Below, one piece after another: positions 6,001 to 10,908 of a stretch of 38,338 bases of DNA. The stretch comes from Patescibacteria group bacterium (lineage in GTDB: Bacteria; Patescibacteriota; Patescibacteriia; UBA1558), in assembly GCA_016784445.1 (NCBI GenBank), contig JADHUR010000001.1:155128-193465 (forward strand), read 5' to 3'. The first letter of the stretch is position 1. Every line of letters begins with the position of its first letter. Made by a program: the position numbers and the translations under genes. The notes under the pieces are model-generated. The model saw only the letters and a list, made by a program, of their open reading frames with translations. It searched no databases and was not told where the DNA came from.

Positions 6001-7936
6001 CTTCACCATTAATAAAATTAACAAGTATATCTCCTTCTGCAAAACCAAAATTATTACCATGTATAGTAATATATGTTCCTACGGGACCATTATCTGGTTC
6101 TAAATATGATATGGATGGTATTAATACGTCCCGTATAACCTCATAATTTATAGGATTACTTAATTCATCAGCAACTTTTACAGCAACAGATACTTTTCCT
6201 GGTTGCAAGTTTGGAATAAGCGAAATAATATTTCCATCTGTCCAGGAATCAATATCTGAACTTGTTACACCAATACCACCAATCATTACAGTATCTTTAT
6301 TATCTCCAAATTGAGTTCCTGTAATTGTAATATTACTTAAAGCTGTTCCAGCTTCTGGAGCAATACCACAAATACCAGGCCTTATAGTTGAATTAACAAT
6401 GAAATCTCCTTGCCAACCCCTATTATCTAAAGTTGTATCAAAATCTCCACCACTTGTTATTATTTTTATTCCTCCCGATACAATACCCTCTGGGACTTCA
6501 ACTATTACTTGCCATGGTGACCATGCAGATACACAAGCTGCAATATTTGCCGTCACTTCATCACCAGAGCTTGCTGAACCTAAAAATACAACACTCCCCT
6601 CTGAACTACCAAAACCATCACCTGTAATTGTAATATAATTTCCTTCTGCTCCATTGTCTGGAGATATATTTGAAATAACTGGAGCAAGTGCACAAATACA
6701 ATCTAAATTACATATACCTTGTCCACATAAAGAATCATTTGGTTCACATATATTTGCAGCTGGATTATTATCACAACTATCTCCTAAACAGCCCCCACAA
6801 GAACCACCACAATCTACACCAGTCTCATCCTCATCTCTCACCTGATTAAAGCAGTGAGCAGGTAATATTCTAATATCCACTTCTCTTGAATAACCAATAT
6901 TACCACTTAAATCTTCAGCTGTTGCACTAACATCAATACTATCACCCTCATCATAGGCAGCTGTACTAAATAATCCAATCCAAGGCTCAGCTCCATCCGT
7001 ACCGGTTGGTAATACTTCTTCATTATCTGCTAAGAAAGTCATGCCAGCTACAACTCCACTATCGTCAGTTGCTTGTGCCTCAAGTGAAACATCAGCAGCT
7101 ACTGAGAAAGTATCATTATCTTGAGGAGTAAATAAAGAAACTTCTGGAGGAGTTAAATCGATATTAGCACCTGTTGTAAAACTCGTTGAACAACCAGTTG
7201 TACAAACCAAAGTTTTGTCATCTAATGATTTTATTGAAGCATTAGCTATGCTAACAGAATAATTAACCGTATTGCCTAAACAATAATCAGCACCCTCTTC
7301 ATCACAAGCAATAAGTGGTTCAATATCTATACGGCTACCAACTACACTTAATTGAAAATTAACAGCCGAATTATCTGCTGAACTTGTGAAAGTAAAATCT
7401 GAGGAAGTGACCGTAGATTCATCTATAATTTTATTGAAATATACTCTGACTAAAATATTTCTAGCAGTATCTGTTGCACCATCATATGGTTGCCAATTCC
7501 TAACAATTAAATTAGCTTCCGTGCCACCAACTGTACCACCAGGACCACCCCCCGGAGAATTTCCATCAGTAAATCCTGTAGCATCAGTTATACTATTAAT
7601 AACAAAGGTAGCAATTGCAAAGGCAGATAATATTATAATTAAACCAATTATAGCTCGGATTAATATTTTCTTTGCCCTATCTACCCTATCTGCATTACCA
7701 CCGGCTGTCATCCACATGAATCCTGCATATAATATAAACACAACTGCAATAAGACCCAAGAAACCAAGTGCTATATTAATGATATTTGTAATAATCCCCT
7801 TTAAATCATTATCCCCTAAACCAATATTTTGAGCACCATCAAGTCCTAAATCTGCAGCTGCAAATAAAGCAAAAGGAATCATAAATAGAATGATTGCAAT
7901 TACTGATATTATAAATTTTGAATAATATCTTTTCAT
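1..7936 (-). CDS. Giant surface protein (>2,645 aa, 3' end outside window): signal peptide, VirB2/TrbC-like pilin module, Ig-like (Big_5/Big_2-like) domains, 8 IPT/TIG repeats, propeller-like module, Cys-rich repeats, LamG-like domain
   Basis: Manual translation from ATG at 7936 (overlapping the TAA of the upstream gene as TAATG): MKRYYSKFIISVIAIILFMIPFALFAAADLGL...GFLGLIAVVFILYAGFMWMTAGGNADRVDRAKKILIRAIIGLIIILSAF... The same frame is still open at base 2 (...NFTVRAYDENDNIVVGEYG). It is probably absent from the ORF track because no stop lies in the window. Confidence 0.93.
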   Translation of the reverse strand, partial: MKRYYSKFIISVIAIILFMIPFALFAAADLGLDGAQNIGLGDNDLKGIITNIINIALGFLGLIAVVFILYAGFMWMTAGGNADRVDRAKKILIRAIIGLIIILSAFAIATFVINSITDATGFTDGNSPGGGPGGTVGGTEANLIVRNWQPYDGATDTARNILVRVYFNKIIDESTVTSSDFTFTSSADNSAVNFQLSVVGSRIDIEPLIACDEEGADYCLGNTVNYSVSIANASIKSLDDKTLVCTTGCSTSFTTGANIDLTPPEVSLFTPQDNDTFSVAADVSLEAQATDDSGVVAGMTFLADNEEVLPTGTDGAEPWIGLFSTAAYDEGDSIDVSATAEDLSGNIGYSREVDIRILPAHCFNQVRDEDETGVDCGGSCGGCLGDSCDNNPAANICEPNDSLCGQGICNLDCICALAPVISNISPDNGAEGNYITITGDGFGSSEGSVVFLGSASSGDEVTANIAACVSAWSPWQVIVEVPEGIVSGGIKIITSGGDFDTTLDNRGWQGDFIVNSTIRPGICGIAPEAGTALSNITITGTQFGDNKDTVMIGGIGVTSSDIDSWTDGNIISLIPNLQPGKVSVAVKVADELSNPINYEVIRDVLIPSISYLEPDNGPVGTYITIHGNNFGFAEGDILVNFINGEDIMPADIDFPAMCGEYSVDNEEIVVKVPEGVSLGEWSLVIIRDLRESLPASFNVTDDILSPGLCLLEPNNGPVGTLVDAYGEGFAATGQFSFWDNIFATILNWTSGHIGTQVPGGANTGPIQIISGDGGFSNTINFSVGSCDANSCNIGDECCSDGICRETGACIQNIGADEYLWSFTTGQQLPPFIVEDVWPQCEEACINTMIGVQFSNPVDEESLNDLSVAVKQCTDANCSAYINEVDYTEGDVSIGYYDDTNYILSINPDGNLQTEGYYRVILKSGSLGIVNTEGGYLENMNFSSTGGEQDSYSWIFRTGIDECTLDRVEALPEEYTIISQDERLNMTGYPFSEPDDCSPRGQMLDPSEYSWLWESTNVSTATVTSAFNEAIITPVWGNPAETSITATADGVMGSSQITVAMDIPRIDSISPDNGRIDENLKTLVTVHGANFGDEQGSTLVLVGGEVAEIADCSGSWSNTQIVIQMPLSTSDQDTIKIIKTGGSDESNPFTVNSIIRPAVCSISPNFGSEETRVTLTGYNFGDEQREGNVFFDQLGVNEIDSWSNTKIKTRVPVGSATGPVVVNVLGNDSNSVIFSLDPHIDSLSPDNGSVNSYVTISGRNFGNEQGDGYVLIGGERSYLAPCIGGWNNNSIIVQIPGSLSLGNEAVQVITHYGIGSNEVDYEINEKPVNPLLCEINPDWAAVNQSVNISGDNFGNGLSSDLIFTNNVSVASSSWGDQSIVASIIEDIKSGPVSIAREFVVGQQCAGFHIGSWCPGDIYEDIIEIVESNSVDFFKGCVIGTTSSREEGYIPTVAENSEAVGTLATDGTYLYGKSWSSYDEADNVISIIGTGYNGTVLGEYYGDLARVSGSITMTYYPDGYLYNGYSLDGHSLQRVNVSTGTVDDDSMNIPAGLLNRNTGEMYSSARGDNLITSDGTYVYNLAFGTRACPDNHGSRCYDGFKVRVFDPMNNWELVREWVSGPDSFYTDGIVADSKYIYAFQWGGQHKVRMMDIVTGEFIAEWISEQGNSGSDGSGNDIISGQYDWVNDRVWLGDLVDHSRAPGPAYIYKYTSCNTYVPDSIPMPYVIDNNSCTDNNVQSPSPYKNIEGICTNSSFSATFNTIMDETSFTDNNIKIFECGIGDNFDSNTCSGQLNFTFDNLTFFNTDQGNGFVIDTDGLLANGTWYQVNLTADIITPSGLSLEPYSWYFKTGEGECELSHVSISPADTTVYVGNEQEYSSLPFGAHCEILPPNDFVYTWSSSNETIATTESSNINMNLVAAIGSGETNIQATTLGVSGLTSLTVIESPNCGDGFVQIDLGEQCDDGNTSAGDGCSIYCQSEIIIGGSCGDGIVQWPNSSFYYEQCDDNNTSSGDGCSNICYLENGNYFGNCPSCDNEVIDSQIGTWSMDEGEGNIVASSINNLNDGALVNGGDNWITGMIGDSALQFNGSDEFVTINDPNGNLDLTNQFTLSAWVNSDEFYQEYSITTLKYQGDEGNEGQFNNSISGIDDFININNRHNFGHLNADGDHYDTVARIPDEIYNYDIIIWDHNTIDLDVSRLDRNKPVYLIVRGNRYGNYSGQQLASYDWEVPGYNGNWNLHTTNIKRSSIANNVFIISSDHTNTHADIWCTWEHYSQLVGRHLGSLISVISGQIVTKGSAFGLYMDNDEIKGYVNFAGTLVGQNNIVTASILDGWNYVTLTYDNSNLKLYINGAEENTISYTGNINNNTTPLLMGQFFVGAIDNVKIYNEARSAEDINSSYTSCTIECTGVVTAECNNNFLDDGEKCDYVDGDYEFSGSQYCVDLDGFAEGVLTCTESCEIDTNQCVPGEPASDVCINTEISAEFDSLMNWLTFITGTENNDTVHFEKVTNLCETGPDSGNACSNDSDCADGVDQGKCDLDINISGGLENIPPNDSQYTKLYVYPLDGILDAGSEYRATVKGGVNGVQDVEGFTLESDYVWPFYTGDAECSIDRVEVTPDSYQFNNSEEIVNFTVRAYDENDNIVVGEYG
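770..1830 (-). other. LamG/concanavalin-A-like domain within the giant protein, interrupted by a ~170-aa insert
   Basis: Motifs GTWSMDEGEG, ALQFNGSDEFV, FTLSAWVN, GQIVTKG, WNYVTLTYD...LKLYING, FVGAIDNVKIYNEARS. Confidence 0.8.
1889..2101 (-). repeat. Two tandem Cys-rich repeats of the Myxococcus cysteine-rich (DUF4215-like) type
   Basis: CGDGFVQIDLGEQCDDGNTSAGDGCSIYC and CGDGIVQWPNSSFYYEQCDDNNTSSGDGCSNIC; DNA 1901-1943 vs 2027-2069 is identical at 38 of 43 positions. Confidence 0.85.
3650..6682 (-). repeat. Eight IPT/TIG-like repeats in two blocks of four (about 5600-6682 and 3650-4750)
   Basis: Recurrent P-x-(I/x)-x-x-(I/L)-x-P-x-x-G...(I/V)-T-(I/L)-x-G-x-x-FG, e.g. PVISNISPDNGAEGNYITITGDGFG, PSISYLEPDNGPVGTYITIHGNNFG, PHIDSLSPDNGSVNSYVTISGRNFG. 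Confidence 0.8.

Positions 7937-10908: not shown

Follow-up and report, generated by a model that had tools for sequence, protein, structure and literature searches.

Two adjacent genes, A and B, encode large proteins in which a complete VirB2-type pilin module is followed by long passengers of other domains. The genes lie on the minus strand of a window of 38,338 nucleotides from an ultra-small Patescibacteria bacterium. The pair is an ancient syntenic module across the sampled class and not a local oddity, which the sequence-only reading had missed, and the mature pilin parts of A and B have evolved in concert with one free pilin, P3 (array pilin 3), of the same genome. The proposed reading is that A and B are modular VirB2-type pilins whose adhesin-like passengers are displayed on the cell exterior and whose pilin parts associate with P3, which possibly makes them minor or tip subunits of a T4SS-built filament; the chances of this reading are about even. 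New here are the free pilins and the PrgI-VirB4 locus elsewhere in the genome, the class-wide synteny and the P3-specific match of the mature modules.

Architecture of the gene pair

The features of both genes are given in Table 1. Gene B is complete with 3258 amino acids at C7:153287-163063, and its end at C7:153287 is beyond the window. The stop of A had been said to overlap the start of B, and the minus-strand sequence (...GAATAATGAAAAG...) confirms that the TAA of A (7938-7936) and the ATG of B (7936-7934) have one base in common. The gap between the medium (M) and giant (G) orthologues of A and B is -4 to about +30 nt in 16/16 genomes. The two genes are read as a co-transcribed pair with probable translational coupling. 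Opposite-strand open reading frames inside A and B matched no family.

Table 1. Features of genes A and B and of the conserved neighbours in the window
Feature	Position	Strand	Evidence
Upstream neighbours YqeY, S21-like, HisRS, LepB, conserved	10942..13672	-	Pfam; same order in 15 other genomes
Gene A, candidate "medium" modular pilin, 990 aa	7936..10908	-	ORF and translation
A, signal peptide, residues 1-35, basic n-region, hydrophobic core, ...SAVFA|NN, predicted cleavage site	10804..10908	-	Sequence reading
A, mature VirB2-like pilin module, residues 36-128	10525..10803	-	PF18895, AF2, free-pilin alignment
A, Big_5 Ig-like domains, residues about 152-520	9349..10455	-	PF13205 81.5 bits, 3 stretches
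A, beta-propeller, residues about 555-870	8299..9246	-	Vgb_lyase 54.8 bits; Reg_prop, SGL, NHL-like matches
A, C-terminal domain, residues 871-990, no family match	7936..8298	-	Common to G005 orthologue
TAATG stop/start overlap of A and B	7934..7938	-	Read from sequence
Gene B, candidate "giant" modular pilin, first 2645 residues in window	1..7936	-	ORF and translation
B, signal peptide, residues 1 to about 27, predicted cleavage site	7856..7936	-	Sequence reading
B, mature VirB2-like pilin module, residues about 28-121	7574..7855	-	PF18895; identity to arr4
B, first Big_5, residues 144-255, end ...FTTGANIDLTPP	7172..7507	-	PF13205 69.9 bits
B, Big_7 Ig domain, residues 264-331	6944..7147	-	PF17957 35.5 bits
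B, TIG/IPT block 1, residues about 419-790	5567..6682	-	PF01833 155.9 bits, 6 stretches; repeat starts read
B, TIG/IPT block 2, residues about 1062-1400	3737..4753	-	Family match and sequence reading
B, Cys-rich acidic repeats, DUF4215/myxo_disulf_rpt, residues 1944-2016	1889..2107	-	Pfam and NCBIfam
B, concanavalin/LamG-like lectin-fold region, residues about 2035-2393	758..1834	-	PF13385 (LamG_3) 71.6 bits, 2 stretches

Both proteins start with a predicted Sec-type signal peptide, after which a short basic loop links two hydrophobic helices. In A, the mature module is laid out as a putatively exposed N-terminal tail, helix 1, the basic loop AADKVEKAKK and helix 2. The signal peptide, GLGD and hairpin described in the sequence-only reading can all be read in the translations, and its assignment of the module as VirB2/TrbC-like is supported by matches to PF18895 (T4SS_pilin) above the Pfam gathering score of 26.6 bits (37.5 bits at residues 50-120 of A, 33.4 bits at residues 44-112 of B) and by the AF2 model of the A module, a hairpin of two helices (15-50 and 55-92 of the module, pLDDT 78.7). 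Matches to PF04956 (TrbC/VirB2) are below the cut-off, with 20.7 (A) and 21.3 (B) versus 27.9 bits, as is the match of A and B to NCBIfam NF045849. Fold evidence from Foldseek is non-specific: no hit in PDB is significant (best E-value 0.19), and the top 50 hits listed are generic helical hairpins without a conjugative pilin. Searching the PDB sequences by profile returned nothing.

The two hairpins had been called near-identical. This is generous: a hand count over the 52-residue core gives 41 identical residues (79%) and only conservative changes, and the whole 100-residue module is 64-65% identical; downstream regions reach only 16-40%. Both modules can be aligned over their whole length with the free pilins arr3 and arr4, and the DLGLD..IGLGD motif before the helix is part of this alignment. 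The B module is 62% identical to arr4, and the free pilin terminates in ...DATTT at the point where B runs on into its linker (...DATGFTDGNSPGGG). The sizes of A and B do not fit a small stand-alone pilin, with a precursor of about 100-150 aa; the pilin module constitutes the N-terminal 3-13% of these proteins.

The Big_5-like domain ending FTT...D(I/L)TPP, reported earlier as common to both proteins, is readable in each and has profile support, and profile matches likewise bear out that the passengers differ beyond it, with a propeller in A and Big_7, TIG/IPT, DUF4215 and LamG_3 in B. The Big_5 region of A is the conserved core of all medium orthologues, judged by BLAST coverage and conservation profile, and orthologues also share a conserved linker and, at the start of their first Big_5, the sequence SGGL.GG.I.SHYP. 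The propeller is a lineage-specific addition, which among the loci read is found only in G000 and G004, occurs also in close database relatives and is missing from most orthologues. Residues 897-985 of A are matched by residues 556-644 of the medium protein in G005. A TafC-like match is located inside B at residues 2035-2130.

Conservation and concerted evolution with a free pilin

Comparison of neighbourhoods, which the sequence-only reading had proposed as a check, places the medium and giant genes at a constant site (LepB-HisRS-YqeY-M-G-...-FtsA-FtsZ) in all 16 loci read, from 16 genomes in seven families, and the pair is found in most sampled genomes of the class. Orthologues of A (500-1000 aa) occupy the same position in 15 other genomes and align to residues 1-518 of A; orthologues of B (2200-4680 aa) directly follow the medium gene within the order and the class. 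In the database, at least 322 proteins have an N-terminus that combines pilin and Big_5. Housekeeping and cell-division genes surround the pair, and none of the 16 loci has T4SS genes beside it. A gene-family survey found no T4SS genes within the window either, in agreement with the earlier statement that it holds no T4SS ATPase. True T4P pilins are encoded elsewhere, for example at 25952-26443 of the window.

Stand-alone pilins and a VirB4-like ATPase had been suggested as targets of a genome search, with the absence of either to favour a plain membrane anchor. Both are present on other contigs, so this refuting condition does not hold: there are 13 matches to PF18895 in the genome, including a tandem array of 9-10 stand-alone pilins (C15:50010-54017), and a PrgI-VirB4 locus on contig C18 (PF19044 2e-29; PF12666 35.6 bits). 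A and B are encoded far from both the array and virB4. Pilins and VirB4 are found in 41/41 sampled relatives, where VirB4 is single-copy and 66-96% identical where the gene is complete.

The mature pilin parts of A and B are far closer to P3 of the same genome than to their own orthologues elsewhere. This likeness begins at the signal-peptide cleavage site and stops after helix 2. Within genomes, identity in the 18-residue tail is 0.73 for M-G, 0.57 for M-P3 and 0.60 for G-P3, compared with 0.21-0.25 between genomes, and none of 20000 label shuffles came up to the within-genome values. For the signal-peptide part, the within-genome identity of paralogues is 0.33-0.38 against a background of 0.34, and past helix 2 identity drops to 15-40%. 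By eye, the tail match to P3 is looser in several genomes outside the order.

The pilin module of B is the most conserved stretch in the first 520 residues of the giant orthologues, and column identity in the giant protein is 50-57% in the pilin core and 11-20% downstream. Core identity between genomes is 0.50 for M and G and 0.56 for P3, and all family-invariant pilin residues (GF.WMTAGG..., IGL.I.L.A) are kept in the A and B modules across the class.

In comparisons with P3, the fraction of identical residues using the same codon is 0.45-0.46, where 0.39-0.40 is expected, and pS is 0.55-0.99. The synonymous-site signal is almost absent, showing no recent gene conversion with P3. M-G pairs have a fraction of 0.58 versus 0.38 expected, with pS down to 0.31-0.47 in four genomes, so part of the M-G matching is due to gene conversion between the neighbouring genes. 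Because saturated synonymous sites cannot date an old conversion, selection for matching with P3 is strongly suggested by these figures, short of proof.

Proposed mechanism and alternatives

The precursors of A and B would be exported by Sec and their signal peptides cut by signal peptidase I. The mature N-terminus would then form a complete conjugation-type pilin, in which a short exposed tail precedes the first membrane helix, followed by a Lys/Arg-rich cytoplasmic loop and a second helix returning to the outside; the charge distribution points to this N-out/C-out topology. After a Gly-rich linker the remaining protein is predicted to be outside the cell, in A three Ig-like Big_5 domains and a beta-propeller, and in B about 3100 residues with Ig/TIG, Cys-rich, lectin-like and unassigned domains. 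Against filament incorporation, it would be sterically awkward for a growing pilus to carry a subunit with 900-3100 folded passenger residues through the cell wall, unless that subunit is inserted first.

With a stalk and binding modules, A and B may act as adhesin-like surface fibres. The part that co-evolves with P3 is the mature module and neither the signal peptide nor the passenger, and the most likely reason is that A, B and P3 associate through their pilin modules, perhaps in a pool of pilins in the membrane. In a stronger version, the PrgI/VirB4 T4SS would build a filament with A and B as rare or tip subunits and the adhesive parts on its outer face. All solved conjugative pili have the N- and C-termini on the exterior of the tube and the charged loop towards the lumen (preprint 10.64898/2025.12.18.695078), so the predicted topology fits passenger display. 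That A and B are true subunits of a T4SS-assembled filament, each carrying its own adhesin and co-polymerising with or capping a P3 shaft, is possible but should be taken as tentative.

The sequence-only reading had offered a choice between a polymerisable tag and a plain anchor. Co-evolution with P3 and conservation of the core lean past the anchor; incorporation into a filament is the part that we infer. As a plain N-terminal two-helix anchor, the module would hold envelope fibres (an S-layer-like coat or wall-spanning stalks) independently of T4SS and filament, and the likeness to P3 would come from common origin and occasional conversion. A C-out hairpin would suffice to keep a passenger at the surface, the Foldseek hits make the hairpin fold generic, and A and B have no other anchor: their C-termini (...SINKIGLE and ...DGEEKPAE) show no LPXTG-type or other sorting signal and no hydrophobic or transmembrane segment. 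The codon-level conversion signal between M and G and the location amid housekeeping and division genes in 16/16 loci also agree with an anchor. However, class-wide retention of all family-invariant pilin residues would be unexpected for an anchor, as would conservation of the module above all other parts of the giant protein. Neutral conversion from a distant locus does not predict that the P3 match would be restricted to the mature module from the cleavage site onwards, with synonymous sites close to random. A mere anchor is the less likely reading, and the sequence comparisons, with invariant residues kept, conservation like that of a free pilin and co-evolution with P3, lean towards a pilin part that is more than generic.

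It is improbable that the pilin module is a leader for export and maturation that is cut after helix 2, leaving a soluble or wall-bound giant protein and freeing a P3-like pilin. VirB2/TrbC-type pilins undergo C-terminal processing, and such a cut would resemble the way in which the RP4 TrbC pilin precursor is trimmed at its C-terminus. The end of free P3 coincides with the start of the linker in A and B, this Gly/Ser-rich stretch past helix 2 looks accessible to proteases in several genomes, and the only signal peptidase I gene of the genome is a conserved neighbour. On the other hand, the junction showed no conserved cleavage motif, and LepB is a single housekeeping copy and not a dedicated TraF-like paralogue. 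An error in gene calling or assembly that fuses a small pilin gene with the surface-protein gene behind it has nothing specific in its favour, although many multi-pilin database "proteins" may be such merges, and is hardly credible, being already contradicted by uninterrupted frames, a conserved linker and first Big_5 start, and the same architecture in more than 40 independent genomes and hundreds of database proteins.

Patescibacteria account for a large fraction of bacterial diversity, and their lifestyle is one of attachment to other cells. Epibiotic growth of the only member amenable to genetics requires its T4SS and the T4SS pilins (PMC10633639). As modular pilins associated with P3, A and B would be a testable candidate contact device, Ig- and lectin-type giants on complete pilin modules that are conserved across the sampled class and co-evolve with one free pilin, and they suggest an undescribed way of mounting adhesins on a secretion-system pilin apparatus. 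The genome-specific N-terminal tails might serve as a natural swap system for assembly specificity. If they are filament subunits, they would represent the first case of a natural "modular conjugative pilin" and could be the missing host-contact device, encoded beside cell-division genes, of the essential Patescibacteria T4SS, which apparently has no adhesin of VirB5 or PrgB type.

Comparison with known systems

The VirB2-like pilins and arrays of Patescibacteria described in two studies (Wang et al. 2023, PMC10633639; Quinonero-Coronel et al. 2025, PMC12102498) agree with A and B in PF18895, in phylum and in having a signal peptide and hairpin. They belong to chromosomal, relaxase-poor T4SS with VirB4 and PrgI, and the free pilins of this genome are such an array. 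The pilins described there are small, stand-alone and often near virB4, whereas the pilin of A and B is the N-terminal module of large proteins. According to the 2025 survey, T4SS adhesins such as PrgB were not detected in Patescibacteria, and no mention of pilin-passenger fusions was found in the passages searched (PMC12102498).

VirB5/TraC tip proteins in diderms and PrgB-type LPXTG adhesins in Gram-positives resemble A and B in the proposed role, contact with the target cell for a T4SS. No sequence relation was found, the VirB5/TraC family having no match in A or B in Pfam and NCBIfam, and A and B are outside the T4SS locus, lack LPXTG and would be attached by their own pilin module. PrgF from Gram-positive conjugative plasmids (preprint 10.64898/2025.12.18.695078) is likewise a VirB2-like hairpin pilin in a monoderm envelope with a VirB4/VirB6-type machine. 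Unlike A and B, it is small, plasmid-borne, dedicated to conjugation and without passenger.

C-terminal peptide fusions to F-pilin were reportedly engineered by Rondot et al. in 1998 and displayed on F pili. These show that a VirB2-type pilin can accept a C-terminal extension and present it on the outside of the pilus, but the fusions are short and synthetic, whereas the extensions in A and B are natural and comprise about 860 and 3100 residues.

In modular type IV pilins, such as PilB and PilC of Streptococcus sanguinis, a pilin module is fused to a functional module. The logic is the one proposed for A and B: an N-terminal polymerisable pilin module bears a large module with an adhesive or enzymatic function, which the filament displays. 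The superfamily is unrelated and depends on a class III signal peptide, a prepilin peptidase and the T4P machinery; A and B have a VirB2-type hairpin and ordinary N-termini of the Sec/SPase I type, without a match to PF07963 (T4P class III signal peptide). With A and B, the "modular pilin" principle, so far one of type IV pili, would also cover conjugation-type pilins.

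Architecture of the gene pair and its pilin module

The medium gene A and the giant gene B lie in tandem, and the stop of the first overlaps the start of the second by one base (TAATG, minus strand). Each protein opens with a basic and hydrophobic signal peptide, after which comes a stretch that matches PF18895 (T4SS_pilin) with 37.5 bits in gene A and 33.4 bits in gene B, above the curated cut-off of 26.6 bits. PF04956 (TrbC/VirB2) also matches the pilin stretch of both, yet below its own cut-off. A glycine-rich linker and Big_5 Ig domains come next in both proteins. Protein A then has a beta-propeller and a C-terminal domain without family assignment, and protein B continues with Big_7, TIG/IPT repeats in two blocks, Cys-rich repeats and a LamG-type lectin fold, together with a weak match to CBM_4_9 and a conserved domain without family assignment. 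No C-terminal anchor was found in protein A or protein B, and opposite-strand ORFs within the two genes matched no family. The sequence-only reading had described tandem pilin fusions with a coupled start and stop, and the ORFs and Pfam matches agree with this. Its description of the two hairpins as near-identical was overstated: the whole module is 64-65% identical, and 41 of the 52 residues in the hairpin core are identical (79%, counted by hand).

An AF2 model built from an alignment of the A and B modules with free pilins of the same genome has two long helices with a 4-residue turn between them (pLDDT 78.7). Charged residues gather in the inter-helix loop (DKVEKAKK in one, DRVDRAKK in the other), while the tail ahead of helix 1 and the segment past helix 2 have acidic or neutral character. 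Under the positive-inside rule, such a distribution points to a hairpin with both ends outside (N-out/C-out), and the passenger would therefore be outside the cell. A Foldseek search of the hairpin against PDB gave, among the top 50 matches listed, generic helical hairpins only (K channels, ATP synthase subunit c, CnrX; best E 0.19), from which it is indistinguishable, and PDB sequences searched with a profile of the pilin alignment gave no match, even at E 10. Membership of the VirB2-like family thus rests on profile similarity and not on fold. By profile and design the module belongs to the VirB2-like pilins of Patescibacteria, and proteins A and B differ from these pilins in that they are not small stand-alone subunits.

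Location of the features discussed. Plain numbers are window positions; L numbers are stretches cut from genomes, C numbers are contigs, G000 is the genome under study and other G numbers are relatives.
Feature	Location	Strand	Remarks
Gene A (medium)	10908..7936	minus	990 aa
Gene B (giant)	starts 7936, runs beyond window; C7:153287-163063 in genome	minus	3258 aa
Conserved domain, ~250 residues	gene B residues 2993-3222; L047:15290-16186, outside window		shared by every giant orthologue; 25 columns invariant, among them several W, Y, D and C
Protein of 1138-1230 aa	L047 11819-15235 (G000); L025 10018-13710 (G002)	minus (L047)	signal peptide, DUF5667, DUF4215 Cys-rich repeats; directly past giant gene, only in family of G000/G002
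Two conserved genes past giant gene	L047 (G000 C7:138001-156000) 9419-11798	minus	same position in L018-L031, most loci extending there
Tandem array of small pilin genes	C15:50010-54017		PF18895
Pilin-like protein, 383 aa	L015 (G000 C18:27000-37889) 2044-3195	minus	long Cys-rich acidic tail; VirB4 operon; weak hairpin, PF18895 21 bits
Tandem P3-type free pilins	L042 (G032 C2) 1599-1976 and 2177-2554; L036 (G010) 6519-7339; L016 (G000) arr3/arr4; L032 (G005) 3935-4845
Type IV pilin, N_methyl motif	25952-26443	minus	163 aa; alone between topA and relA; unrelated to VirB2-like pilins
Surface-glycan and surface-protein cluster	30900-38303	minus
ORF	17479-17925	minus	148 aa; between pth and mfd; no Pfam family matched

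Conservation and context of the pair

Relatives have a PF18895 match in a frame of 500-1000 aa and then, within 2-3 kb, another in a frame of 2200-4600 aa. The order is constant in the 15 medium and giant loci of relatives that were read: LCP (divergent), then LepB, HisRS, (S21), YqeY, medium and giant, with a gap of -4 to about +30 nt between the last two in every locus. Further downstream, most loci extending there have two conserved proline-rich/TSP3 proteins, YbeY, (DagK), FtsA, FtsZ and NrdR. The sequence-only reading had proposed neighbourhood conservation across Patescibacteria as a check; the housekeeping context is the same in the loci read, and the pair is present in most of the same-class genomes of a 400-genome phylum sample, where the medium protein has 577-755 aa and the giant 1714-4681 aa. 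Other classes in this sample have mostly free pilins and a few fusions of 1550-1680 aa.

The part aligned by medium orthologues is residues 1-518 of protein A (the pilin and three Big_5 domains). The beta-propeller is found in the genome under study and G004 only among the loci read, and also in close database relatives. Giant orthologues have in common the pilin, the TIG region and the domain of about 250 residues (gene B residues 2993-3222). This domain has no match in Pfam; its AF2 model, of fair quality (pLDDT 74.8, pTM 0.77), gave nothing meaningful in Foldseek (best E 7e-3, TM 0.12). One of the two genes past the giant gene encodes about 250 aa rich in proline and glutamine with bacterial TSP3 (calcium-binding) repeats; the other encodes 440-540 aa. 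Past these two lie YbeY, DagK, FtsA and FtsZ. Together with the pair, the two genes may form one envelope module.

The pilin and Big_5 N-terminus occurs in at least 322 database proteins of 545-1732 aa, whose names are either 'Ig-like domain-containing protein' or just the two Pfam domains. At 50% clustering the whole pilin family numbers about 72,800 representatives. Among the top matches to the pilin profile are many library proteins with 2-17 pilin modules, for example P0123 (820 aa, 8 modules) and P0126 (1775 aa, 17 modules), which are genuine tandem poly-pilins or else arrays that gene callers have joined, perhaps via stop-codon reassignment.

Around the pair the window has housekeeping genes only (YqeY, S21, HisRS, LepB, LCP, Der, Pth, Mfd, DprA, MurC-like, TopA, the type IV pilin, RelA, ParAB and glycan genes). 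The surface-glycan cluster includes two GT4 glycosyltransferases, a Wzy_C O-antigen-ligase-like protein, a DUF11 protein and a GHL15 glycosyl-hydrolase-like protein with FG-GAP repeats. LepB is the only S26 peptidase of the genome and is therefore a housekeeping enzyme, which rules it out as a dedicated TraF-like pilin peptidase.

Free pilins and their match with the pair

PF18895 matches at 13 places in the 698-kb genome. The sequence-only reading had called for a search for stand-alone pilins and an assembly ATPase and named their absence as a refuting case; this case does not apply, since the genome has both: the array on C15, and on C18 a PrgI (VirB3-like) gene and a VirB4 ATPase (P-loop_TraG 2e-29) adjoining the 383-aa protein. 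Each of the 41 relatives sampled has pilins of PF18895 and a single VirB4, 66-96% identical to that of the genome under study where the gene is complete. The array layout is kept: GalU, a solute-binding lipoprotein, the Cys-rich pilin 1, the small pilin 2, pilin 3 (P3), further pilins and a large membrane protein. Pilin 1 has 222 aa and ten Cys; with the 383-aa protein there are four different pilin-plus-extension proteins in the genome. The tandem copies of P3 in G032 differ at one residue and are identical in the pilin core, pointing to a recent duplication or conversion of this array member.

The mature N-terminal tail is genome-specific, and P3 (duplicated in some genomes) shares it with the medium and giant proteins of its own genome, for example DLGLD.AQ.IGLGD in the genome under study, VNVTNFGTENLNNLL in G021, S.D.PSSFAGFSSQDLK in G032 and GYIP.FGLG in G039. 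Identity in the 18-residue stretch ahead of helix 1 is 0.73 between medium and giant, 0.57 between medium and P3 and 0.60 between giant and P3 inside one genome, against 0.21-0.25 between genomes; none of 20,000 label shuffles reached the observed within-genome values. In several genomes from other orders of the class, the tails match less closely (judged by eye). Within a genome the similarity has functional limits: in the signal-peptide part it does not exceed background (0.33-0.38 vs 0.34), and past helix 2 identity falls at once to 15-40%. In a tree of the helical core, medium and giant of one genome are usually sisters and form no clades of their own (14 label changes each), while P3 is its own clade but groups with the medium and giant of its own genome in three genomes.

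Recent gene conversion accounts partly for the likeness of medium and giant and hardly at all for that of P3. Adjacent medium and giant genes have 0.58 identical codons where 0.38 are expected (pS as low as 0.31-0.47 in four genomes), and this excess indicates some gene conversion between neighbours. Identical codons with P3 are near random (0.45-0.46 vs 0.39-0.40 expected; pS 0.55-0.99). Old conversion events are possible, given that synonymous sites are saturated. The pilin core is the best-conserved stretch in the first 520 residues of the giant protein (column identity 50-57% vs 11-20%), and its conservation between genomes is about like that of P3 (0.50 vs 0.56). Most plausibly, the mature pilin parts of three proteins from two distant loci are kept matched by selection.

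Possible working and comparison with known systems

Proteins A and B would be inserted by Sec, cut by the single LepB and left as N-out/C-out hairpins with the passenger outside. The sequence-only reading saw in the pilin part either a polymerisable tag for adhesins on a T4SS-like filament or a repurposed membrane anchor. We give an even chance to a predicted association of A, B and P3 via their pilin modules, possibly in a filament; the grounds are that selection acts on the pilin part as on a pilin and that this part follows P3. A preprint (10.64898/2025.12.18.695078) describes both pilin ends as exposed on the outer side of the tube in every solved conjugative pilus, with the charged loop towards the lumen. 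A C-terminal passenger is therefore topologically compatible with a filament, in which a folded passenger of 900-3100 residues would, for steric reasons, be easiest to accommodate on a tip (first-in) or rare subunit. T4SS genes adjoin the pair in none of the loci read, which speaks against this reading. That the hairpin is a plain anchor is possible, if less probable, and that it is a cleaved leader is improbable. An artefact of gene calling has almost no probability left, given the conservation of the fusions across genomes.

Proteins of this type would be natural host-contact devices. PrgB-type adhesins are reported missing from the phylum (PMC12102498), and T4SS and pilins are described as essential to epibiotic growth in the one tested species (PMC10633639).

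Neither natural VirB2-pilin fusions nor 'modular' conjugative pilins turned up in a search of the literature. In their passages on pilins, VirB2, fusions and adhesins, papers on Patescibacteria describe small VirB2-like pilins and arrays and do not mention pilin-passenger fusions of the kind represented by A and B. In its way of working the nearest analogue is the modular type IV pilin, a member of a different superfamily. New compared with these systems are the medium and giant operon conserved across the sampled class, its fixed housekeeping context and its concerted evolution with one free pilin.
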